Below, piece by piece: positions 1,004 through 63,110 of a stretch of 64,000 nucleotides of DNA. Each line of letters starts with the position of its first letter. Positions within the stretch are counted from its first letter, which is position 1. The notes under the pieces are model-generated. The model saw only the letters and a program-made list of their open reading frames with translations. It made no database searches and was not told the origin of the DNA. This DNA is from Gemmatimonadaceae bacterium (lineage in GTDB: Bacteria > Gemmatimonadota > Gemmatimonadetes > Gemmatimonadales > Gemmatimonadaceae): the NCBI GenBank assembly GCA_035444005.1, contig DAOMNV010000007.1, positions 11,604-75,603 of the forward strand, read 5' to 3'. Position numbers and translations under genes: made by a program.

Positions 1004-1957
1004 ATGGACGGACTCGCAGTCCCGGTACACGGCTTCCGGATCCTCACGGGCAACTCGAATCGCCCGTTGGCCGAGAGCATCGCCAAGTCGCTGGACGTGG
1101 ACCTCTGCAAGGCCACGGTCTCGCGCTTCGCGGATGGTGAGGTCTTCGTGCGGCTCGACGAGAACGTCCGCGGCGCGGACGTGTTCATCGTCCAGCCCAC
1201 CAGCACGCCGGCGGAAAGCATTATGGAGCTGCTGCTCCTCGTGGATGCCGCCCGCCGCGCCTCCGCGGCGCGGATCACCTGCGTGATGCCCTACTACGGC
1301 TACGCGCGGCAGGACCGCAAGGACCAGCCGCGCGTCGCCATTGGCGCCAAGCTGATGGCGAATATGATCGCCCGCGCCGGCGCCGACCGCATCCTCGGTC
1401 TCGATTTCCATTTCCACCAGCTGCAGGGCTTCTTCGACATCCCCGTCGACCACCTCTATGCGGCGCCCGTCTTCACGGCGCACTATCGCAAGAAGGGGCT
1501 CGTCGATCCGGTCGTCGTCGCACCCGACGTCGGCAGCGCCAAGATGGCCCGCGGCTTCGCCAAGCGCCTCAACGCCTCGCTGGCCATCATCGACAAGCGT
1601 CGCCCCGTGGCCAACGTGGCCGAGGTCGTGAACGTCGTCGGTGAGGTCGAGGGCAAGGACTGCTTGCTCGCCGACGATATGATCGACACCGCCGGCACCG
1701 TCTCCGAGGCCGCCAAGGCCCTCAAGGACCTCGGCGCCCGCAACATCTACGTCTGCGCCACGCACGCGCTGCTCTCCGGCCCCGCCGTCGAGCGGCTCAG
1801 CAACGCCCCGATCACCGAAGTCGCCATCACCGATTCCATCCTGCTCCCGGAATCGAAGCGCTTCGAGAAGCTCACGATCCTGAGCGTGGGGGAGTTGATG
1901 GCGAAGGCGATTCGGTTCACGCATAGCGATCAGAGTGTGTCTTCGCTCTTCGAGTGA
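1004..1957 (+). CDS. prs: ribose-phosphate pyrophosphokinase (PRPP synthetase)
   Basis: 317-aa ORF with PRPP-synthetase signatures (GEVFVRLDENVRGADVFIVQPTS; DLHFHQLQGFFDIPVDHLY; VVAPDVGSAKMAR). It heads a conserved prs-rplY-pth arrangement. Confidence 0.9.
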   Translation: MDGLAVPVHGFRILTGNSNRPLAESIAKSLDVDLCKATVSRFADGEVFVRLDENVRGADVFIVQPTSTPAESIMELLLLVDAARRASAARITCVMPYYGYARQDRKDQPRVAIGAKLMANMIARAGADRILGLDFHFHQLQGFFDIPVDHLYAAPVFTAHYRKKGLVDPVVVAPDVGSAKMARGFAKRLNASLAIIDKRRPVANVAEVVNVVGEVEGKDCLLADDMIDTAGTVSEAAKALKDLGARNIYVCATHALLSGPAVERLSNAPITEVAITDSILLPESKRFEKLTILSVGELMAKAIRFTHSDQSVSSLFE

Positions 1958-2070
1958 GGACTTGAGACGGGGGACGTGAGACGTGAGAGCGTCTCCCCCT
2001 GTCTCTGCAGGTGCAGGACCCAGAAGTGCGGCACGAGACCTCTCAAGTCCCCCGTCTCAAGTCTCACGTC
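1958..2070. repeat. family-A palindromic intergenic element (two inverted arms, about 50-nt spacer)
   Basis: Left arm GGACTTGAGACGGGGGACGTGAGACGTGAGAG (1958-1989) and right arm CTCTCAAGTCCCCCGTCTCAAGTCTCACGTC (2040-2070) are reverse complements. The same arm sequence recurs at 5500, 6127, 7263 and 8186. Confidence 0.7.
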
Positions 2071-2150
2071 TGCGAATTGAAGATCGCCGCCGGTCCGGAC
2101 AAGCCGGGACACCACGTAGCGATCACAACATTCAGTAGGATCGGTTCACA

Positions 2151-2837: not shown

Positions 2838-3410
2838 ATGAAGGTCATCCTCGGGCTCGGGAATCCCGGGCAGGAGTACGCCGAGACGCGCCACAACGTC
2901 GGCTGGTGGGTGGTCGACCACCTCGCCGACGCGTGGCGGCTGGACGGATGGCGCAAGGACGGCGAGGCGATGACGGCCTCGGGCACGCTAGGCAGCGTGA
3001 AGGTCCGGCTGGTCAAGCCGCTCACCTTTATGAACCTCTCGGGCCAGGTCCTCAAGCCATACCTGCGGCGGCCCTTCTGGGCCGCCGCGACCGACCTGCT
3101 GGTCGTCTCGGACGAAGTGCAGTTGGCCACCGGCACCTATCGGTTCCGGTCCCGCGGCTCGGCGGGTGGCCACAACGGGCTCAAGAGCATCGAGCAGCAC
3201 CTCAAGAGCCAGGAGTATGCGCGGTTGCGGGTCGGTGTCGGTCCATCCGACCCCCAGCGGCGCATCGGCGATCTCGCCGACTATGTGTTGGACCGGTTCG
3301 GGAAGGCCGAAGCCGCGGATGTCCGTGCGCTGCTGCCGACCTTCGAGGAGGCCCTCCGCCTCTGGACCACCGATGGCATCGAGCGCGTGATGAACGCGTT
3401 CAACCGCTAG
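2838..3410 (+). CDS. pth: peptidyl-tRNA hydrolase
   Basis: [27 protein letters not shown]... is the canonical Pth N-terminus. It lies in the conserved position after rplY. Confidence 0.9.
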
Positions 3411-3438: not shown

Positions 3439-5499
<2,061 letters not shown>

Positions 5500-5525
5500 G
5501 ACTTGAGACGTGAGAGGTGAGACTT

Positions 5526-5559
5526 GAGAGGGGGCGGCCCGGCTGGGCTGCCCCCTCTC
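5526..5559 (+). terminator. GC-rich hairpin immediately after the hppA stop codon (terminator-like)
   Basis: GAGAGGGGGC...GCCCCCTCTC is a perfect 10-bp stem with a 14-nt loop, followed by a T/C-rich tract. No clean U-run is present, so intrinsic-terminator status is uncertain. Confidence 0.4.
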
Positions 5560-5653
5560 TCGTTCTCTCGCGTTCTCGCTCGGCTTCGCTCGTTCTGCTC
5601 CGTTCCGCTCCGATTCGCTTCGTTTCCCTTCGTCTCGCTTCGTCTCGCTTCAC

Positions 5654-6055
5654 TCACGTGCGTGAGCCGGCCCTACGCTTCGATGTAGAGGGCGCCGCGA
5701 TGCGCTCACGGACGCGGCGGCCGAGCGAGTTGAGCATCGCTTGGACCTCACCGAGACGGGCCTCGAGTGTCGCGAATGTCTTGAGGTCGATTGCGCCGAG
5801 GTCCTTCGCCAGCAGGAGGTGGTACTCAGCTTCGCGTGCCGACGCGAGGGCAATCGTGAGATGGCGGTTGAACTGCGCCTGCGAGCCGAGGCCCGCTCCT
5901 TCAACGATGTTCGCCGGGATTGAAGACACGGACCGGCGCAGTTGCTGGGCGAGGCTCGGAAAGCGCCGCAGCATTTGCCCCTCGGTGATCGGGTAGATCA
6001 TCAGCGTGAGCGCGTGGGCCTTCTCCCACACGGAGAGTCGTCGGAAGGGATGCAT
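5654..6055 (-). CDS. four-helix-bundle protein (23S rRNA intervening-sequence protein / Avd-like family)
   Basis: Translation [55 protein letters not shown]...[13 protein letters not shown] matches the pattern of the TIGR02436/PF05635 family. The start may instead be the upstream ATG at 6085. Confidence 0.7.
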
Positions 6056-6162
6056 AGCGGGAACACTGTGTTCAGCCCCCGTCACCGCAGCGTCATTTCC
6101 CCGCGCGCGATTACCTTTCTACGCACCTCTCAAGTCTCACGTCTCACGTCTCAAGTCCAAGA

Positions 6163-7263
6163 ATGCTCTCCCTCGGCATCGTAGGCCTCCCCAACGTCGG
6201 CAAGAGCTCGCTCTTCAACGCCCTCACCGCCGCGAAGGCCGAAGCCGCCAACTACCCGTTCTGCACCATCGACCCGAACGTCGGCGTCGTGAACGTCCCC
6301 GACCCGCGCCTCGATGCGCTGGCGGAGATCGTGAAGCCCGAGCGCACCGTTCCCGCGGCGGTGCAGTTCGTCGACATCGCCGGCCTCGTGAAGGGTGCGA
6401 GCACGGGCGAAGGCCGCGGCAACGCCTTCCTCTCGAACATCCGCGAGACGGACGCGATCGTGCACGTCGTGCGCTGCTTCGACGACGATGACGTGATCCA
6501 CGTCGACGGTTCGGTGGATCCGGTGCGCGACCGCGCGACGATCGAGTTCGAGCTGGCCCTCGCCGACCTCGCGGTCGTCGAGAAGCGCCTCGACAAGGCC
6601 AAGCGCGCCGCGAAGACGGGCGACAAGGACGCCGCCGCCGAGGTGGGCTCGCTGGAGAAGGCGCACAAGCCGCTCAGCGAGGGGCAGGCGCTGTGGCACG
6701 TGTCGCTCTCGAGCGAGGACCGCGAGCGCCTGAAGGGCCTGCAGCTGCTCACGCTCAAGCCGATCCTCTACGCGGCGAACGTTACCGACGCGGAGCTCAC
6801 GGGCGCCGAGGGCGCGCACGTGACGGCGCTGCGCGCGGCGATCGCCGCCGACCACGAGCCGGCCGAGGTCGTGACCTTCTCGGCGAAGATCGAGATGGAA
6901 CTCGCCGAGCTGCCGCCCGAGGACAAGAAGGAATTCCTCGCGTCGCTCGGCATCGAGAGCGCGGGCCTGGACCGCCTGATCCGCGGCGGCTACTCGCTCC
7001 TCGGCCTGCAGACGTACTTCACCGCCGGCGAGAAGGAAGTGCGCGCCTGGACGATCAAGCAGGGCGACACCGCGCCGAAGGCGGCGGGCGTGATCCACTC
7101 GGACTTCGAGAAGGGCTTCATCCGCGCCGAGACCGTGAGCTTCGAGGACTTCGTCGCGCACAACGGCTGGAAGGGCGCGCGGGAAAAGGGCGTCGCGCGG
7201 GCGGAAGGGAAGGAGTATGTGATGCAGGATGGGGACGTTGTGCTGTTTCGATTCAATGTTTGA
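6163..7263 (+). CDS. ychF: ribosome-binding ATPase YchF (Obg-family GTPase)
   Basis: MLSLGIVGLPNVGKSSLFNALT... contains the G1 motif. It is full-length (366 aa) with a C-terminal TGS domain. Confidence 0.9.
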   Translation: MLSLGIVGLPNVGKSSLFNALTAAKAEAANYPFCTIDPNVGVVNVPDPRLDALAEIVKPERTVPAAVQFVDIAGLVKGASTGEGRGNAFLSNIRETDAIVHVVRCFDDDDVIHVDGSVDPVRDRATIEFELALADLAVVEKRLDKAKRAAKTGDKDAAAEVGSLEKAHKPLSEGQALWHVSLSSEDRERLKGLQLLTLKPILYAANVTDAELTGAEGAHVTALRAAIAADHEPAEVVTFSAKIEMELAELPPEDKKEFLASLGIESAGLDRLIRGGYSLLGLQTYFTAGEKEVRAWTIKQGDTAPKAAGVIHSDFEKGFIRAETVSFEDFVAHNGWKGAREKGVARAEGKEYVMQDGDVVLFRFNV

Positions 7264-7358
7264 GACTTGAGACGGGAGACTTGGGACGTGAGAACTCTTG
7301 ATTGCACCCGCATCGTCTTCGGCGAATTTCTCCCGTCTCAAGTCTCACGTCTCACGTC
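7263..7358. repeat. family-A palindromic intergenic element
   Basis: Arms GAGACTTGAGACGGGAGACTTGGGACGTGAGAAC and TCTCCCGTCTCAAGTCTCACGTCTCACGTC are separated by about a 35-nt spacer. The element overlaps the ychF stop and the predicted 5' end of the next ORF. Confidence 0.7.
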
Positions 7359-8190
7359 CGCAGCAGCGGCAGCGTTGGCGTTGCTGCTCGCGACGAACCT
7401 CCCCGCCCAATCCTCAACAAGCCCCGGCTCCCTCCCCGCCGCCGAAGCAGCGCTCGCCCGCTCGCCGGAGAGCCTCGAAGCGGTTATTTGGCACGCCCGC
7501 TTCGTCGGCTACACTGACTACGCGCGCGCCGTGCAGCTCTACACCGACGCGCTGCGCCGCTGGCCCGACGAGCCCTGGCTGCTGCGCCACCGCGGGCATC
7601 GCTACATCTCGCTACGGCGCTTCGGCGAGGCCAAGGCCGATCTCCAACGCGCCTTCGACCTGACGCGCGGTAAGCCGGACCTCGTCGAGCAGGATGGGCA
7701 GCCCAACCCCAGCGGCATCCCGACGAGCACGCTGCAGTCGAACATCCGCTATCACCTCGCGCTCGCGCAGTTCCTCACCGGCGACTTCGCGCCGGCGGCG
7801 CAGATTTGGGCCGAGGACGCGCAGGTGGCCAAGAACCTCGACCAGCGCGTCGCCGCGACCTACTGGTGGGTGCTCTCCTTGGCCCGCGGCGGCGACTTGG
7901 CCGCGGCACGGGCCACGCTCGCGCCCATCCAGGCCGACTGGGAGATCATCGAGAACGGCAGCTACCACCGGCTGCTGCTGTGGATGAAGGGCGAGCTCAG
8001 CGAAGCGGCCCTGCGCGCGTCGATGACCACGCCGCTGGAGCGGCAGACCATCGGCAACGGCATCGCCCAGTGGAAGCTGGCCACCGGCGACCGTGCCGGG
8101 GCGGATGCGGCACGGGCGGAGGTGCTTGCGACGGGGCCGAGCGCGAGTTTCGGGTTTATTGCGGCGGAGAGGCTCCGTCCAGAGAGGTGA
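7267..8190 (+). CDS. TPR-repeat protein, probably exported (start uncertain; TTG at 7375 gives MALLLATNLPAQ...)
   Basis: Long ORF with TPR-like helical repeats (YTDALRRWPDEPWLLRHRGHRYISLRRFGEAKADLQRAFDL...). The N-terminal region overlaps the family-A repeat, so the true start is unclear. Confidence 0.5.
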   Translation: MRRETWDVRTLDCTRIVFGEFLPSQVSRLTSAAAAALALLLATNLPAQSSTSPGSLPAAEAALARSPESLEAVIWHARFVGYTDYARAVQLYTDALRRWPDEPWLLRHRGHRYISLRRFGEAKADLQRAFDLTRGKPDLVEQDGQPNPSGIPTSTLQSNIRYHLALAQFLTGDFAPAAQIWAEDAQVAKNLDQRVAATYWWVLSLARGGDLAAARATLAPIQADWEIIENGSYHRLLLWMKGELSEAALRASMTTPLERQTIGNGIAQWKLATGDRAGADAARAEVLATGPSASFGFIAAERLRPER

Positions 8191-8243
8191 GACCTGAGAC
8201 GTGAGACGTGAGAAACCGATCTCCCGTCTCAAGTCTCACGTCT
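8186..8243. repeat. family-A palindromic intergenic element (short hairpin copy)
   Basis: GGTGAGACCTGAGACGTGAGACGTGAGAA...TCTCCCGTCTCAAGTCTCACGTC with a 6-nt loop, located upstream of rpsF. Confidence 0.6.
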
Positions 8244-8358
8244 TCCACTCCCTTGCCCTAACCCCCCAACGCACCTATACTTAGGGGCTGGTCAACATTT
8301 ACCTCGCCCGCCGATGGCAACCCGGCTGGCGCGATTAGCCCAAAGGAGGATTGCCGCA

Positions 8359-8962: not shown

Positions 8963-9991
8963 GTGACCGAGGAGGGGCTCGCGGCCACGCCGCGTGAGCA
9001 GGGTTGGTGGGGACCGCTCCTCGCCTTCCTCGCGCTCCTGATCTTCCCGGCAGCACCGCCATTCGCGTTGCTGCTCCCGGTGGACCAGACGCTCCTCCTG
9101 CTCGCCCCGGCGATGGCCTTGATGGCGATCGCGGGGTGGCGCAGCGGGGGGCGCATTGCCCTCGCGGCCACGTGGACGGCGTTCGCGGTCTACGTGGTGT
9201 GGGTGTCGGGTGATCCCACCCCGTTCGCGCTCCTGGCGCGGGGCTGGGGGGTGATCCTGGCGGCGTGCTTCGCCGGCACGCTGCTCCTCGGGGGCGAAGT
9301 CCGCTTCCTCCCGAGAGCGCTGCTGGCGATCCTCGCGGCGCTGTTGCTGGGCACGCTGACGGTCCTCGTGACCGACGGCGGCGTGGCGGCGGCGGCCGGG
9401 GTGGTGTCGGAGGAATTCACGCGACGCGTCACGGAGATCCAACGCGCGTGGCAGGAGTTCACGGCCCAGCCGCAGTGGCAGGAGCTGGCGCAGGACAACG
9501 CCGGCGCGCACGAGCTCGCGGCCCAGGTGGAACGGCAGTTCACTGCCCTGCCCACCGCGGCCAAGGTGCTCGTGCCGGCGATGTTGGCGCTGCAATCGCT
9601 GGCGGTGCTCGCCCTCGCCTGGGCGTTCTACCATCGGTTCGGACGGGTGCGGCTGGGACCGCCGCTCGCCGCCCTGCGGGACCTGCGGTTCCACGACGGC
9701 CTCGTCTGGGGGCTGATCGCCGGACTGCTGGTGTTGGTGGTCCCGATGCCGGACGCCGTCGCGGCGCTCGGGATCAACTGCCTCGTGTTCTTCGGCGCCC
9801 TCTACGTGCTTCGCGGGCTGGGCGTCTTCGTGTGGTTCTTGAAGCCGGGTCGCTGGATGGTCATCCTCTGGTCCATCGTCCTGGTGATGTTCTGGTCCGT
9901 AATCGCAGCGGTTGCCCTCGTCGTCGGCGTGGGTGACACCTGGCTCGACTGGCGCAACCGGCCGCGGCCGCAATCCCAACGTTCGGAGTAG
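8963..9991 (+). CDS. polytopic membrane protein, DUF2232 (YybS)-like
   Basis: 342 aa and very hydrophobic. It sits between rpsR and rplI, where yybS/DUF2232 is found in other bacteria. GTG start. Confidence 0.55.
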   Translation: MTEEGLAATPREQGWWGPLLAFLALLIFPAAPPFALLLPVDQTLLLLAPAMALMAIAGWRSGGRIALAATWTAFAVYVVWVSGDPTPFALLARGWGVILAACFAGTLLLGGEVRFLPRALLAILAALLLGTLTVLVTDGGVAAAAGVVSEEFTRRVTEIQRAWQEFTAQPQWQELAQDNAGAHELAAQVERQFTALPTAAKVLVPAMLALQSLAVLALAWAFYHRFGRVRLGPPLAALRDLRFHDGLVWGLIAGLLVLVVPMPDAVAALGINCLVFFGALYVLRGLGVFVWFLKPGRWMVILWSIVLVMFWSVIAAVALVVGVGDTWLDWRNRPRPQSQRSE

Positions 9992-9993
9992 AT

Positions 9994-10440
9994 ATGGAAG
10001 TCATTCTTCGCCAGGCCGTGGACAACCTCGGCCACCCGGGGGACATCGTCGACGTCTCGGCCGGATACGCCCGCAACTTCCTGCTGCCCCGCGGCATCGC
10101 CTACGAGGCGACCGAAGGCAACAAGAAGCGCATCGCCCAGGAGAAGGAGCGCCTGGAGGCCGCCGAGAACGCCCGCCGCGACGCCGCCTCGGCGATCGCC
10201 AAGCGCCTCGAAGAGGTCTCGCTCACCTTCTCCGCCAAGGTCGGCGAAGAGGGCAAGCTCTTCGGCTCCGTCACCACCGGTGATATCCATCACCAGCTGG
10301 AGGCCCAGGGCTTCAAGGAAGTCGAGAAGCGGATGATCGACCTGCACGAGCCCATCAAGGCGCTCGGCGTCTACAAGGTCGCCATCCGTCTCCACGCCGA
10401 CGTGAAGCCGGAGATCAAGGTCTGGGTCATCAAGGCCTAA
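9994..10440 (+). CDS. rplI: 50S ribosomal protein L9
   Basis: MEVILRQAVDNLGHPGDIVDVSAGYARNFLLPRGIAYEAT... is the canonical L9 sequence. Confidence 0.9.
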   Translation: MEVILRQAVDNLGHPGDIVDVSAGYARNFLLPRGIAYEATEGNKKRIAQEKERLEAAENARRDAASAIAKRLEEVSLTFSAKVGEEGKLFGSVTTGDIHHQLEAQGFKEVEKRMIDLHEPIKALGVYKVAIRLHADVKPEIKVWVIKA

Positions 10441-10465
10441 GCGCCTCGATCCACCGAGGTCACAC

Positions 10466-10504
10466 GAGGGGGCGGGCCGCATCGCGGTTCGCCCCCTTTG
10501 TGTT
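10466..10504 (+). terminator. intrinsic terminator after rplI
   Basis: GAGGGGGCG...CGCCCCC stem followed by TTTGTGTT. Confidence 0.5.
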
Positions 10505-10561
10505 GCGCGCGACGCGTCGGTCCGGTGGCCACGCGTGCGGTCCTGCGGACCGCTGGGGTAT

Positions 10562-10730
10562 TGCACCACGGAGACACGGAGGCACGGAGACCGCAGGAGG
10601 GAGCTTCCGGGGGACCAGCCGGAAGGTGTCGGCACGGGTTCCCCACGTAGCCGTGTCGGCACGAGAACCAAACACACGCAGTGCCCGTAGTGGCAGCCTC
10701 CGTGTCTCCGTGTCTCCGTGGTGAATGCAG
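10562..10730. repeat. family-B palindromic element (CACCACGGAGACACGGAG arms, about 105-nt structured core)
   Basis: Left arm CACCACGGAGACACGGAGGCACGGAGACC (10564-) and right arm CCTCCGTGTCTCCGTGTCTCCGTGGTGAATGCAG (10696-10729). The same terminal arms occur at 21755 and 62960. Confidence 0.7.
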
Positions 10731-11184: not shown

Positions 11185-14100
11185 ATGCGCCGTTGGCTGC
11201 TCGCTGTCGCCCTCCTCGCCGCCGCCCCCGCGCTCTCCGCGCCTGCGCTCCACGCGCAGATGGGCCCGTACTTCGGCCAGAACCAGGTCCAGTACCGCAA
11301 GTTCCGCTGGCAGATCCTCCGCACGCCGCACTTCGACGTGCACTACTACCCGGAGCTGGAAGAAGTCGCGCGCTACACCGGCCAGATGGCCGAGCGCTCC
11401 TATGAGCGCCTGCGCCGCGTCTTCGGCCACGAGTTCCGCGAGCGCAAGCCGATCATCATCTGGGGCTCGCGCAACGAGTTCGCCCAGAACAACGTCATCG
11501 GCGACGCGGGCGAAGGCACGCTCGGCGTCACCGACGCGCTGCGCCAGCGCAATATGTTCTTCTTCGCCGGCGATATGCGGCAGAGCGAGCACACGCTCAC
11601 GCACGAGATGGTGCACGTCTTCCAGTTCGACATCTTCGCCCGCGGCCGCGCCGGCGCGGGCCTGCAGGACCTCGGCCGCGTGCAGCCGCCGCTGTGGTTT
11701 ATGGAGGGGATGGCCGAGTACGTGACGAACGGCCCCGGCCACAACGCCACCGACGCCGTGATGCGCGACGCCGCGCTCAACGGCAACATCCCCAGCGTCC
11801 AGCAGATGACGCAGCGGCCGGACCTGTTCTTCCCCTACCGCTTCGGCGAATCCTTCTGGGCCTACGTCGCCGGCCGCTGGGGCGACGAGGTGATCGGCGA
11901 GGTGATGAGCGCCTCCGTCTCGCTGGGCATCGAACGCGCCTTCCGCCGCTACACCGGCACCGACCTCGAGGACCTCGGCGAGGAATGGAAGGAGCACGTG
12001 CAGACGACCTTCCTGCCGGGCATCGCCGAGCTGGAGCGGCCGCGGCGCTATGCGCAGCCGCTGCTCTCGCAGCGCCGCACGGGCGGCCTCGTCAACGTCT
12101 ACGTGGCCCCCGCGCTCTCGCCCGACGGCCGCAACATCGCCTTCATCTCGCTGGGCTCGCTGCTGCGCGCCGAGGTCTTCCTCGACCTCTACCTCGCCGA
12201 CGCCAACACCGGCGAGCGCAAGGCGCGGCTCACGAAGAGCACGCTCAACCCCGAGTACGAGGAGCTGCGCTACGGCTACTCGCAGGGCGCGTTCTCGCCG
12301 GACGGCCGCTACTTCGCCTTCACGGCGCAGCGCGACGGCAAGGACATCCTCTACATCCACGACGTGCGGCGCAACCGCACGCACCGGCGGTTGGAGACGG
12401 AGCTCGTCGCGATGATCGGCCCCACCTGGTCGCCCGACGGGCGGCGCATCGTGTTCTCGGGCCTCGCGAACGGGATGACCAACCTGTATATGATCGACGC
12501 CGACGGCCGCAACCTGCGGCAGTTGACGGACGACGTGTACGGCGACCTGCAGCCCTCGTGGTCGCCGGACGGCCGCTGGATCGCCTTCGCGTCGGAGCGC
12601 GGCCCGCAGACGGACCTCGAGACGCTCAAGTTCGGCGAGTGGCAGATCTCCGTGCTCGACCTCGAGTCCAACGAAGTGCGCGTGCTGCCGCAGCAGGCGG
12701 GCAAGAACCTCAACCCGCAGTGGGCGCCGGACGGGCAGTCGATCGCCTTCCTCTCCGACCGTACGGGCATCGCGCAGCTGTTCCTCTTCGACCTCAACGA
12801 CGAGCGGCACTACCAGCTGACGAAGTTCGTCGGCGGCATCACCTCGCTCACCGAGCACAGCCCGGCGATCACCTGGGCGCAGCAGGCCGACAAGCTGGCC
12901 TTCGTGTACCAGGACAACGGCGACTACCAGGTGTGGTCGATCGCCAACCCGCGCGCGCTCAAGAAGGAGCCCTTCGTGGAGCGTCCGCAGGTGATCGCGG
13001 CGGCGGCAGTCCGTGTATCTCAGCGCCGGCGGCTGGCGCCCCGGCGACGCGGTGATCAGCGGGCCCGGCGGCAGCGGCATCTCGATCGCCGCGCTCAACG
13101 ACAGCGCCTCGCTGGCCCTGCCCGACGCCGCGACCTTCCGCACCGCGCAGTACCGCAGCCGGCTCGCGCCCGAGTACGTCGCGCGACCGCAGATCGGCTA
13201 CGCGCAGGACAACTTCGGCCGCGGCGTCTTCGGCCAGACGGCGATCGTGCTCTCCGACCTCGTCGGCAACCGCCGGCTCGCGATCGCCGGCGGCATCAAC
13301 GGCCGCATCTCCGAGGCGCAGGTCTTCGCGCTCTACAGCGACTTCAGCGGCCGCACGCCCTGGTCCGTCGGCCTGCAGCAGTATCCGTTCTTCTTCCTCA
13401 CCGGCTACAGCCAGACCGGCGTCGGCGGCGGCACCGTCATCGAGCAGCAGACGATCACGCGCTTCATCTCGCGATCGGCCGTCGCCAACGCCTCCTACCC
13501 GCTCAACCGCTTCTCCCGCTTCGAGTACGGCGCGACGCTCAACAACATCGATCGCTCGCTGATGTACACGACGCAGCAGTACAACTTCAACACCGGCTTC
13601 TCGACGGGCTTCTTCGTCGACTCGATCGTCAACGGCGCCTCGCTCAACTACGCGGCGCCGTACGTGGCCTTCGTGCACGACAACGCGCTGATGGGCGCCA
13701 CCGGCGGCATCTACGGCCGACGCTCGCGCTTCCAGATCGAGCACACCGCCGGCACCGTGCAGTGGACCACCTACACCGTGGACTACCGCCGCTACGACGC
13801 GCTGCTCTTCAGCTTCCTCACGCTGGCCACGCGCTTCTCGGCCAGCATCAGCGCCGGCCCCGACGAGCTCGAGTTCCCCAAGTACATCGGCCGCCCCGAC
13901 TTCATCCGCGGCTACGACCGCGAGACCTACGCCGGCGGCGTCTGCGAAACCTCGCTCTCCGACCCGCAGTCCTGCTCCGCCCTGCAGCTCCTCGGCAGCC
14001 GCGTGGCCTTCGCCAACGCCGAGCTGCGCTTCCCGCTCGTGCGCCAGTTCGTGCTCGGCGTGCTGCCGATCGCCCTGCCGCCCGTCGACGGCCTGTTCTT

Positions 14101-14320
14101 CTACGACATCGGCGCCGCCTGGTCCAAGGACCAGCGCCTCTACCCGCAGCGGCCCAACAACTACGACTTCGCCTACGAGCGCTACCCCCTGCGCAGCTAC
14201 GGCTTCGGCATCCGGCTCAACCTCTTCAACATCGCCCTCGTCCGCTGGGACTACTCGATCCCGCTCGACGGCAGCAACCGCAAGGGCTACTGGTTCTGGA
14301 CGCTGGGGCAGTCGTTCTGA
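11185..14320 (+). CDS. large exported protein: peptidase-like N-domain (HEMVH) + PD40/TolB-like beta-propeller repeats + C-terminal Omp85/BamA-like beta-barrel; the reading frame shifts near 12995-13015 (frameshift or sequencing error)
   Basis: Frame 1 (11185-about 13010) has a signal peptide, an HExxH motif and multiple WSPDGR-type PD40 repeats. Frame 2 (12995-14320) encodes a beta-barrel ending ...YWFWTLGQSF with a C-terminal Phe. The two frames overlap by only 18 nt in a GCGGCGGCGGCA run. Confidence 0.6.
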
Positions 14321-14346
14321 GCCGCGCGCGCGAGTATTTTTCGCGC

Positions 14347-15888
14347 GTGGCTCTTCCCCGACGATTCCCCCTGATCGCCCGCGGGCGCGGCGCTGGCCGC
14401 CGCGCCCTGCTCCTCGCCGGCTTCGCCCTCGCCATCGGCTGCGGTGACGCCCGCGTCTCCTCGGGCGGCGCGATCGCCGCCAGCGGCCCGGACGCCGTGC
14501 TGCTGCGCGTGCCCGCCGCCGGCGGCACCGCCCTCGCCCACCGCGCCGGCGACGACAGCACCCTCTGGTCCTCGCGCAGCCGCGTCCCCGCCTCCGAGCG
14601 CCTCCTCGGCTTCGACGACTTCCTCGGCATCGCCCTGCTCCGCGAGCCCAGCGGCCACATCAGCTCGCTGGACCTCCGCCTCGGCACCGTCACGCGCCTC
14701 GCCGACCAACGCCTGCCGCCGCGCCTCGTCGCCGAGGGCGCGGCCGTCTTCGGCCTCGAGGAGAACGGCCGCATCGTGCGCCTCACGCCCTCGGTCACCT
14801 GGAGCTGGCCCGTGCCGGGCGGCGCCACGGCACTGGTGCCCACGCCCGACGGCTCGCTGCTCGTCATCAGCACGGCCGAGGGCCGCAGCCGCGTCATCCG
14901 CATCGTGCCGCCGGAATCGCGCACGCTCGACTCCGCGACCATCGGCGCCGTGCGCCTCGCCGCGCGCACGCTCTCCGGCGACCGCCTCTGGGCCGTCACC
15001 GCCGACGGACTGGTATCGCTGCGCACGCGCGACCTCTCGCAGGCCTTCGAGCTGCGCATCAGCGACAGCATCGTCGGCTTCGCCCTCACGCCCAGCGGCG
15101 ACCGCGCCTTCGTCGCCACCGACGAGGACGAGCTGCGCATCGTCGACCGCTACGCCGAGCGCGAACGCGGCCGCGTCGCGCTGCCCGGCCGCGTCACCGA
15201 CCTGCGGATGGATCCCGACGGCCACTACCTACTCGCCAAGGCCGCCGGCGTCGACTCCGCCTACGTGATCAGCATCGGCACAGAGCGCGTGGTGGGCACG
15301 CTGGCCAGCGCCTGGCGCGACGACCTCCCGCTGGTCACGCCCGACGGCCGCGTGCTCGTCGTGCAGGGCGATCACGCCGTGCTGCTCGACGCCGAGTCGG
15401 GCCGCGAGCGCCTGCGCTATCGCAACGGTGCCGCCGACCGCTGGCTGCTGATCCGCTACAACGGCTTCCGCCCCCGCGCCGCTGGCCTCGACCGGCCCGT
15501 GGAGTTCGAGGAGTACGCGCAGGATTCCGCCTCCGCCGATTCCGCGCTCACGGCGATGATCTACGGTCGCTACGGCGACCTCGGCAGCGTGGGCCGCGCC
15601 GCACCGATGGAGAACGCCCCCGCCCCGCCGCCGGCGCAGCGCCCCACCGGCACGGACCTGCGCGGCACCTGGAGCGTGTCGTTCGCGACGATGATGACCG
15701 AGGACCGCGCCAAGTCGATGGCCGACAGCATCGTCGTCGACGGCCGTCGCGCCCGCGTGGTGCCCGGCCTGCGCGACGGCGTGCAGGTCTGGCGCGTACT
15801 GCTCGGGCCCTTCGAGACGCGGCAGGCCGCCGAGCGCGCGGGGATGGCCTCGCGCCTGAGCTACTGGGTGTTCGAGGGCGCGCCGTGA
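14347..15888 (+). CDS. lipoprotein with a C-terminal SPOR (peptidoglycan-binding) domain
   Basis: GTG start. The signal peptide plus lipobox LAIGC indicates a lipoprotein. The C-terminal about 75 aa (TWSVSFATMMTEDRAKSMADSIVVDGRRARVV...WRVLLGPF) is SPOR-like. The 1567-aa ORF in the six-frame track is a high-GC artefact spanning three genes. Confidence 0.6.
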   Translation: MALPRRFPLIARGRGAGRRALLLAGFALAIGCGDARVSSGGAIAASGPDAVLLRVPAAGGTALAHRAGDDSTLWSSRSRVPASERLLGFDDFLGIALLREPSGHISSLDLRLGTVTRLADQRLPPRLVAEGAAVFGLEENGRIVRLTPSVTWSWPVPGGATALVPTPDGSLLVISTAEGRSRVIRIVPPESRTLDSATIGAVRLAARTLSGDRLWAVTADGLVSLRTRDLSQAFELRISDSIVGFALTPSGDRAFVATDEDELRIVDRYAERERGRVALPGRVTDLRMDPDGHYLLAKAAGVDSAYVISIGTERVVGTLASAWRDDLPLVTPDGRVLVVQGDHAVLLDAESGRERLRYRNGAADRWLLIRYNGFRPRAAGLDRPVEFEEYAQDSASADSALTAMIYGRYGDLGSVGRAAPMENAPAPPPAQRPTGTDLRGTWSVSFATMMTEDRAKSMADSIVVDGRRARVVPGLRDGVQVWRVLLGPFETRQAAERAGMASRLSYWVFEGAP

Positions 15889-21754: not shown

Positions 21755-21882
21755 TTTCACCACGGAGACACGGGGGCTGCAACTGCAGGAACTGCACGTC
21801 TTGGGGGTTCGCACCGAATCATCGGCGCGGGCCCCCAATACTTTTCTGCTGTAGTCTCCGTGTCTCCGTGGTGAATGGCAGT
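21755..21882. repeat. family-B palindromic element
   Basis: TTCACCACGGAGACACGGGG...GTCTCCGTGTCTCCGTGGTGAATGGCAG with an internal CTGCAACTGCAG sub-palindrome. Confidence 0.7.
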
Positions 21883-49162: not shown

Positions 49163-49206
49163 TTTACTCATAATATTGAGTATTTTTACTCATTAAACTG
49201 AGTATT
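49163..49206 (+). promoter_or_regulatory. AT-rich segment with two near-identical palindromes (TACTCAtaatatTGAGTA / TACTCAttaaacTGAGTA) just upstream of the ATPase gene
   Basis: About 75% AT in an about 70% GC genome. The two dyads TACTCA-N6-TGAGTA are 4 nt apart and end 5 nt before the ATG at 49211. Confidence 0.3.
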
Positions 49207-49210
49207 TTGT

Positions 49211-62959: not shown

Positions 62960-63110
62960 ACTGCAACTGCAATTACCACGGAGACACGGAGACACGGAGG
63001 CTGCAACTGCAGGGACTTCTAGGGGGCTCGCATCGAAGTTTTCGGCGCGAGCCCCCTAAGAATTGCAGTTGCAGTCTCCGTGCCTCCGTGCCTCCGTGGT
63101 GACCGCAGTT
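62960..63110. repeat. family-B palindromic element (compound, nested palindromes)
   Basis: Arms are CTGCAACTGCAATTACCACGGAGACACGGAGACACGGAGG...CCTCCGTGCCTCCGTGGTGACCGCAG. An inner CTGCAACTGCAG/CTGCAGTTGCAG pair and a central CTAGGGGGCTCGC...GCGAGCCCCCTAAG hairpin are nested inside. Confidence 0.7.

Follow-up and report, generated by a model that had tools for sequence, protein, structure and literature searches.

PF05635/TIGR02436 is a very large family of four-helix-bundle (4HB) proteins, to our knowledge without known function and known only from the intervening sequences (IVSs) of ribosomal RNA (rRNA) and, distantly, from the Avd proteins of diversity-generating retroelements (DGRs). Here we describe a 4HB gene that lies outside rRNA, between hppA and ychF of a Gemmatimonadaceae bacterium, and that is enclosed by two inverted arms built of tandem heptamers. 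The stretch analyzed, called the window throughout, comprises 64,000 nucleotides (nt) of contig DAOMNV010000007.1 (assembly GCA_035444005.1). The initial annotation of this stretch had noticed the arms, the gene between them and similar hairpins without cargo nearby, and had likened them to miniature inverted-repeat transposable elements (MITEs) and their autonomous partner.

The closest described systems are the IVSs that carry an open reading frame (ORF). In Coxiella burnetii, the helix-45 IVS of 23S rRNA contains a PF05635 ORF (S23p), ends in a 28-bp terminal inverted-repeat stem that is cut by RNase III, and has three to four GACAGAT heptamers just before the S23p ATG, in a copy number that depends on the strain (PMC4990558). 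An IVS that enters an rRNA tetraloop carries its stem with it, excision of IVSs by RNase III has been shown in Coxiella, Salmonella and Leptospira, and ideas of a mobile element or a transposition remnant were put forward in 1990 and 1993 (PMC4990558). The element of the window shares with the ORF-bearing 23S IVSs of Coxiella (S23p) and Leptospira a PF05635 protein and terminal inverted repeats (~28-32 nt) whose pairing encloses the ORF in a stem-loop. With the Coxiella IVS it also shares tandem heptamers beside the ORF and vertical descent after acquisition. However, the window element is flanked by hppA and ychF and does not lie inside 23S or 16S rRNA; no Rfam family, rRNA included, reached the gathering score across the 64-kb window, and the hairpins gave only sub-threshold, miRNA-like chance matches. 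Its arms, unlike those of Coxiella, consist wholly of heptamers and recur as ORF-less hairpins at neighboring spacers, and RNase III excision, demonstrated for the rRNA IVSs, is putative in its case. The initial annotation knew of no MITE-versus-autonomous relationship described for this protein family; applied to the bracketing, this would be too strong a statement, as terminal inverted repeats are classical 23S IVS anatomy, the Coxiella heptamers have been reported and mobile-element ideas go back to 1990 and 1993 (PMC4990558). What does appear undescribed so far is a general bracketing rule and the concerted, fast evolution of gene and arms; term searches of the open literature in PMC and bioRxiv found no paper that joins PF05635 genes to inverted heptamer arrays.

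Other systems resemble the locus in part. The Avd protein of DGRs has been described as a pentameric, positively charged barrel resembling the S23 ribosomal proteins. Within the DGR ribonucleoprotein, a single RNA stem-loop touches each of the five Avd protomers, and its flipped-out bases fill the crevices that separate them (bioRxiv 10.1101/2023.10.23.563531). The 4HB gene differs from avd in having no adjacent reverse transcriptase or pair of template and variable repeats, the genes within 5 kb being prs, the L25 gene, pth, hppA, ychF, a TPR ORF, rpsF and rpsR. The 'global regulator binding sites' of Geobacter metallireducens (classes 1-3) are paired runs of three to five tandem 7-9-nt repeats, one run on each strand and the spacing variable, and IS110 and IS481 insertion sequences (ISs) occupy fixed distances from such paired sites (PMC2700814). 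The class 2 unit, TCTCCGTS, is the octamer of a second hairpin family of our window (PMC2700814). The G. metallireducens sites differ in that they are read as DNA sites of the IHF/HU type and were not linked to PF05635 by their authors; the gene names listed for the pairs do not tell whether PF05635 genes stand between them. Finally, Beggiatoaceae, Cyanobacteria and Bacteroidetes have heptamer arrays beside start codons, for which 'no mechanism evident' was recorded (PMC4679880). These TAACTGA and short tandemly repeated repetitive (STRR) sequences are likewise tandem heptamers placed directly at start or stop codons, in phyla that overlap those of the bracketed PF05635 genes described below, and cyanobacterial PF05635 genes are themselves flanked by such arrays. 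They were described, however, as direct repeats upstream of many genes and not as inverted pairs around one family, and no connection to PF05635 was drawn.

Inverted repeat arms across the PF05635 family

The two arms of the window element, 5500-5531 and 6126-6157, are each 32 nt long, are 594 nt apart and match at 31/32 positions (97%) as reverse complements, much as the initial annotation had stated. They are not unique-sequence terminal inverted repeats; arms here are tandem arrays of 3.4-5.0 heptamers, GAGAC(G/T)T (GAGACNT) and variants, according to Tandem Repeats Finder (TRF). When the RNA of the whole element is folded, a long-range stem formed by the arms closes it, in the minimum-free-energy and in the centroid fold.

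The arms enclose one credible ORF, the 4HB gene, also as first reported. Its product has 133 amino acids (aa) from the ATG, or 143 aa from an alternative GTG start at 6085, and the shorter form fits the 115-135 aa or so that is expected of this family. Profile matches place the protein clearly in PF05635 (E=1.6e-27, 96.3 bits against a cut-off of 33.8) and TIGR02436 (E=1.1e-27, 96.4 bits against a cut-off of 24), and N49, I50, E52 and G53 of the conserved core SIPANIxEG are invariant across an alignment of 21 relatives. The nearest solved relatives by profile are 2GSC (E=1.8e-31) and 2RLD (E=7e-17), both of them entries that comprise five chains; no solved Avd chain was reached from the protein by sequence. 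PF05635 (TIGR02436) was the only match of the ORF, which contains no transposase, recombinase, nuclease, HUH/Y1 or other catalytic domain.

Three ORF-less hairpins with the heptamers of the 4HB arms lie nearby (Table 1), in line with the cargo-less copies noted at the outset. They have short loops and folding z-scores of -4.4 to -5.1 relative to shuffled sequence. The motif GAGACGTGAGAC, allowing two mismatches or fewer, matches 31 times in the window against 9.8 +/- 2.7 expected, and 28/31 matches fall within the initial 8.3 kb. Because four hairpins follow one another, mutually inverted, outward-facing arms also stand around ychF and around the TPR ORF. It is hence not the window by itself but the statistics across genomes that set the 4HB gene apart.

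A scan of contigs for four GAGACNN units returned at least 120 loci from many phyla. The family profile, run on 120 listed heptamer loci, found five PF05635 genes, 4/5 of which lie between inverted short-repeat arrays. The arms of these genes take the form of TCTCAAG repeated 13 times on one side and CTTGAGA six times on the other in a Holophagaceae locus (the same heptamer as in the window), of GAAGACA in Ignavibacteriales, of GTATCGG / CCGATAC in a metagenome-assembled genome (MAG) of Bacteroidota, and of 7-8-mers in Akkermansia.

An unselected sample gave a firmer measure. Eighty metagenomic PF05635 loci were picked by a protein-only pattern, 69 of which were testable, and each was scored by the best ungapped inverted repeat between two 250-nt flanks, with a threshold of at least 14. 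The threshold was reached by 56/69 genes (81%), and 33/69 scored 18 or more. Random intervals of the same size in the same loci never reached it (0/201, maximum 12), and complete neighboring ORFs did so in 7/204 cases; three small bracketed ORFs among these controls encode unrelated proteins. Bracketed PF05635 genes were seen in Gemmatimonadota, Acidobacteriota, Ignavibacteriales, Verrucomicrobiota and Cyanobacteria. Arms were present in 6/7 PF05635 loci of viral contigs and in 4-5 of 6 loci of cyanobacterial plasmids, where they fill the intergenic gaps almost entirely and the units occupy the cas10/cmr2-cmr3 junction, the cas6-cas4 junction or a gap amid partition genes. Another PF05635 unit was found between cysD- and cysN-like ORFs. 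ORF-less heptamer hairpins, by contrast, are scarce near PF05635 genes outside Gemmatimonadaceae and Ignavibacteriales (2 in ~170 kb), so the genes did not merely land among abundant hairpins. No other recurrent cargo family was found between inverted arrays in the 120 heptamer loci listed, only ordinary genes between separate hairpins. Since most PF05635 genes in many phyla have them, the arms belong to the gene unit and not to the site.

The geometry of the arms is regular. The period is 7 nt in 45/52 arm pairs, with a few octamers, and array length has a median of 31 nt (interquartile range 28-34), with four full units in 54/90 arms. Five positions of the heptamer are almost invariant and two are variable; 77% of arm-to-arm mismatches sit at the two variable ones. 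In most loci outside Gemmatimonadaceae the downstream arm contains the ORF stop codon. The distance from the end of the upstream arm to the ATG has a median of 45 nt and is no more than ~20 nt in one locus out of four. Co-orientation with the neighbors ('++' 32 versus '--' 10) does not clearly exceed ordinary strand coherence, and both orientations occur.

Two observations on the wider set of loci can be added here. The cassettes in CRISPR-Cas operons (L227, 1501-1860, and L228, 1486-1842; Pseudanabaena cas6/cas4 and Picosynechococcus cas10/cmr2-cmr3) leave gaps of ~35 nt with little besides the arms. Among the matches listed, GAGACNN arrays seemed commoner in Acidobacteriota, Bacteroidota, Chloroflexota, Cyanobacteria, Verrucomicrobiota, Planctomycetota and Fibrobacterota than in Proteobacteria and Firmicutes, which is an impression and not a count.

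An old resident with rapidly changing arms

Homologs of the 4HB protein and of YchF were searched and their contigs compared, in loci of at most 20 kb. Besides the organism of the window, 13 other Gemmatimonadales loci were examined, among them L105, L122, L123, L125, L206, L207, L211 and L220-L224. In all 13, the 4HB gene lies directly upstream of ychF and divergent from it; the gene before it is usually hppA and twice pth. This synteny holds down to a YchF identity of 74-76% and a 4HB identity of 43-53%. The initial annotation had looked to target-site duplications and to empty sites in relatives for signs of insertion. No direct repeats flank any of the four elements of the window, and no empty site, that is, a ychF locus without the 4HB gene, was found in the 13 loci or among the YchF relatives searched. 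At the hppA/ychF locus, the 4HB gene is an old, vertically kept resident of the Gemmatimonadales and not a recent insertion.

Arms are present and inverted at every ychF locus examined, and the heptamer unit differs between genomes. It is GAGACNT in the window, L122 and L125, GACGGAT in L123, AGGTGNG in L206, CAGGNGA in L207, GGGGACG in L211, AGATGTR in L220, GAGTTNN in L221 and GAGATGK in L222. The ORF-less hairpins stay at orthologous positions across relatives, and their unit is that of the 4HB arms in 8/9 genomes that have such hairpins. Period, length and inverted symmetry of the arms are preserved, but the sequence changes rapidly, in both arms and usually in the neighboring ORF-less hairpins together.

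This turnover is best seen between L220 (Pseudogemmatithrix spongiicola, CP130612.1) and L221. Their YchF proteins are identical. On either side, ~450 nt of DNA match at 100%, but identity falls to 41-85% over the tract that begins ~45 nt before hppA ends and reaches the ychF ATG. Aligned unit by unit, the two loci differ by one shared core substitution, which recurs in each unit of the two arms and likewise throughout the ychF/TPR hairpin. The 4HB gene has a dS of 0.94 and a dN/dS of 0.23, against a dS of 0.04-0.29 for prs, pth, hppA and ychF, and across relatives the matrix of 4HB identities is incongruent with that of YchF. The 4HB gene is functional and under purifying selection, yet it diverges, or is replaced, much faster than its flanks. 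Either allelic replacement of a cassette-sized tract or local conversion or rewriting may lie behind the L220/L221 divergence.

A side observation concerns hppA, which is a mosaic between the two loci (L220 5450-6900), with patches of 71-95% identity amid stretches of 98-100%. This mosaic indicates that recombination with divergent donors is frequent in the region.

Proposed function of the arms and competing explanations

The element of the window is best read as an IVS-type PF05635 cassette outside rRNA, accompanied by ORF-less satellite hairpins. By analogy with rRNA IVSs and Avd, the arms would be cis-elements of the gene, probably a stem to which the pentameric Avd-like protein binds, which RNase III cuts, or both; we rate this proposal as having about an even chance of being correct. 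Under it, the arms would act as periodic nucleic-acid structure. With both arms on one transcript, the ORF would be closed in a stem of ~30 bp interrupted every 7 nt, which RNase III might cut as it does the stems of rRNA IVSs. The 4HB protein, as a homolog of pentameric barrels such as Avd, could bind the arrays or hairpins, each protomer taking up about one heptamer. Arms of 4-5 units, each with two unconstrained bases, would suit a pentamer like Avd, whose five protomers all contact one stem-loop through flipped-out bases. The ORF-less hairpins past the stop codons of prs, ychF and the TPR ORF would be further sites of the same kind, serving as transcript-end or processing elements. A stem for RNase III and a binding site for the protein would both fit the arms and could coexist.

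Several points weigh against this proposal. Mismatches compatible with G-U pairing are as frequent on the sense as on the antisense strand (44 versus 44, with 112 others, in 52 arm pairs), which gives no sign of strand-specific RNA pairing. Unit variants are hardly mirrored in their order: permuting the units lowers complementarity only from 23.4 to 20.4, and a test of unit order gave p<=0.05 in just 7/49 loci, mostly those without a 7-nt period. The lack of G-U bias and the small effect of permutation suggest that exact pairing is not selected and that the conserved feature is the inverted array of 5-nt cores. In this lineage, the 4HB gene is antisense to its neighbors, with 70 nt between arm and ATG. 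It may be transcribed from a promoter of its own, and its mRNA would then not include both arms. The arms of L224 and L105 show no clear periodicity, and two hairpins near the L122 gene are of another heptamer type than its 4HB arms. Slippage together with template switching or gene conversion could produce concerted change of the arms with no protein partner, and allelic replacement by recombination could account for the high 4HB divergence. Protein binding and cleavage of the arms are themselves argued from analogy.

The bracketing rule ties the PF05635 family to unexplained intergenic heptamers (STRR, TAACTGA and the Geobacter sites) and lets the rRNA IVSs be seen as a single location of a cassette of wider occurrence. 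It also invites a bolder view, to which we attach little probability. PF05635 proteins might be trans-acting partners of the heptamer and octamer repeats scattered between genes in Cyanobacteria, Bacteroidota, Acidobacteriota, Gemmatimonadota and others, with a pentamer reading about five units. Gene and arrays would then be a pair that co-evolves and perpetuates itself, concerted rewriting of the arrays, perhaps through templated copying of the Avd/DGR kind, would take the place of ordinary mutation, and 23S IVSs would be the special case that landed in rRNA.

A related explanation likens the locus to the partnership of repetitive extragenic palindromic (REP) sequences with REP-associated tyrosine transposases (RAYTs), in that a single-copy, vertically inherited 4HB gene would maintain or spread its cognate repeats in trans. 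RAYTs are single-copy genes flanked by REPINs, each specific for one REPIN type (PMC3337134). The 4HB locus resembles them in several respects: a vertically inherited gene in stable synteny has inversely oriented short palindromic repeats on its two sides, repeats of this type are also found by themselves in intergenic DNA, the repeat type seems specific to a genome or allele, and gene and arms both evolve fast. The agreement of arm and hairpin types within genomes points the same way, though local gene conversion could give the same pattern; the comparison covers the 64 kb and loci of at most 20 kb. However, RAYTs are HUH tyrosine transposases and the 4HB protein has no HUH/Y1 or other known catalytic motif; REPs are unique-sequence palindromes and not arrays of 7-nt units. 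Furthermore, ORF-less copies are mostly missing nearby outside Gemmatimonadaceae, those of Gemmatimonadales occupy orthologous positions and not new sites, L122 mixes heptamer types, and a second hairpin family (octamer CACGGAGA) exists with no 4HB gene of its own in the 64 kb. We consider such a partnership improbable.

It is similarly unlikely, in our view, that the 4HB gene is a passenger, which, like ISs, lodged in the loops of ordinary intergenic palindromes (terminators, REP-like elements or DNA-binding sites such as those proposed in Geobacter) with which it has no functional tie. All four heptamer hairpins of the window do start at stop codons, and the 4HB cassette and three octamer hairpins enclose terminator-like GC hairpins. 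The ychF/TPR hairpin of P. spongiicola has an IS256-family element in its loop, with a target-site duplication of 8 bp, and another palindrome there holds a second copy; the fixed placement of IS110 and IS481 beside paired sites in G. metallireducens is comparable (PMC2700814). But a passenger model cannot explain why 81% of PF05635 genes are bracketed where hairpins are as sparse as 2 in ~170 kb. The absence of any other recurrent cargo family among the heptamer loci and the common position of the ORF stop codon within the downstream arm also speak against it, as does the stem that rRNA IVSs carry with them into a tetraloop (PMC4990558).

The MITE relationship first proposed, in which the arms would be transposon terminal inverted repeats, the 4HB copy autonomous and the ORF-less hairpins its non-autonomous derivatives, holds in one part: arms and 4HB gene are a recurrent unit, with ORF-less hairpins nearby. 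It draws on the same arms being found with and without the gene within 7 kb, on the presence of the gene-plus-arms unit in unrelated operons (cas10/cmr2-cmr3, cas6-cas4 and the cysD-cysN-like pair), which implies past spread as a unit, on the roughly cassette-sized divergent tract between L220 and L221, and on the mobility role that older IVS literature gave to the ORF (PMC4990558). Nevertheless, we judge it very unlikely, as the cassette encodes only a 133-aa helical bundle with no transposase or nuclease domain, has no target-site duplications, shares nothing but 7-nt chance matches between its interior and the loops of the ORF-less hairpins, keeps the same site in 13 other Gemmatimonadales loci with no empty site, and has arms that, unlike recognized transposon ends, are short-repeat arrays drifting in unit number and sequence.

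Features of the window

The window has a G+C content of 67%. Its first 7.8 kb are 99.9-100% identical in DNA to a Gemmatimonadaceae MAG (L001), and its YchF is 95% identical to that of P. spongiicola. The 4HB gene is antisense to both neighbors, convergent with hppA and divergent from ychF. The left arm begins within the hppA stop codon, and 5 nt separate the end of the right arm from the ychF ATG.

Table 1. Genes and repeat features around the 4HB gene (positions counted from the first nucleotide of the window)
Feature	Position	Strand	Remarks
prs	1004-1957		stop codon 1955-1957
ORF-less hairpin	1958-2072		heptamers as in 4HB arms; starts 1 nt past the prs stop codon
L25 gene	2151-2807		
pth	2838-3410		
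hppA (H+-pyrophosphatase, H+-PPase)	3439-5499		stop TAA 5497-5499
Left arm	5498-5531	+	AAGACTT GAGACGT GAGAGGT GAGACTT GAGAGG; ~5 tandem heptamers; TRF period 7, 5.0 copies
Terminator-like GC-rich hairpin	5526-5559		GAGAGGGGGCGGCCC-GGCT-GGGCTGCCCCCTCTC; on inner side of left arm, between convergent hppA and 4HB genes
Imperfect 5/10-nt repeats	5555-5651	-	CGCTTCGTCT-like, also TCGCTTCGTC-like, up to 6 copies; between 4HB stop codon and GC hairpin
4HB gene	5654-6055	-	
Conserved motif	6109-6119	+	GATTACCTTTC (GAAAGGTAATC on 4HB strand); directly inside right arm
Right arm	6126-6157	-	~4.9 heptamers, reverse complement of left arm
ychF	6163-7263		ATG at 6163; stop TGA 7261-7263
ORF-less hairpin	7261-7360		heptamers as in 4HB arms; ychF stop within first unit
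TPR ORF	ends 8190		stop codon 8188-8190
ORF-less hairpin	8182-8244		heptamers as in 4HB arms; TPR ORF stop within first units
rpsF, rpsR, rplI	after TPR ORF, within first 10.5 kb		

Within the cassette, the GC-rich hairpin has an equivalent in orthologous loci, and the imperfect repeats that follow it are the least conserved part among relatives (39-40% identity to L122). The motif inside the right arm (4HB strand GAAAGGTAAYC) is kept in L105, L122, L123, L125 and L220-L222 while the adjoining arms change completely; L211 carries TACATTTG in its place. It may be a promoter or untranslated-region element of ychF or of the 4HB gene. Its interpretation as a Bacteroidetes-type -7 promoter element was considered and not adopted, because rpsF in the window has an ordinary promoter-like site (TTGCCC/TATACT). 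At the cassette, scans for sigma-70 promoters and terminators were uninformative.

The stop codons of prs, hppA, ychF and the TPR ORF all lie at or inside the first heptamer of a hairpin (Table 1). Units such as GTGAGAC and GGATGAC contain TGA, so that an array terminates all three reading frames that enter the hairpin from outside.

In L220, the IS256-family (Transposase_mut) element in the loop of the ychF/TPR heptamer hairpin spans 9109-10538, and its 8-bp duplication is AACCACAC. The second copy, at 13686-15180, follows rplI and lies between inverted G-rich arrays. L221 has the ychF/TPR hairpin without an IS.

A second palindrome family of the window is formed by inverted arrays of ~3 tandem octamers (CACGGAGA / TCTCCGTG) at 10567-10720, 21756-21875 and 62965-63110. 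These palindromes stand just past stop codons, each around a GC-rich, terminator-like hairpin, and no PF05635 gene accompanies the octamer arrays within the 64-kb window. A further repeat, at 49163-49208, is an A+T-rich, internally palindromic 22-nt tandem repeat (TTTACTCATAAAACTGAGTATT, 2.1 copies) that is conspicuous against the high G+C content of its surroundings.

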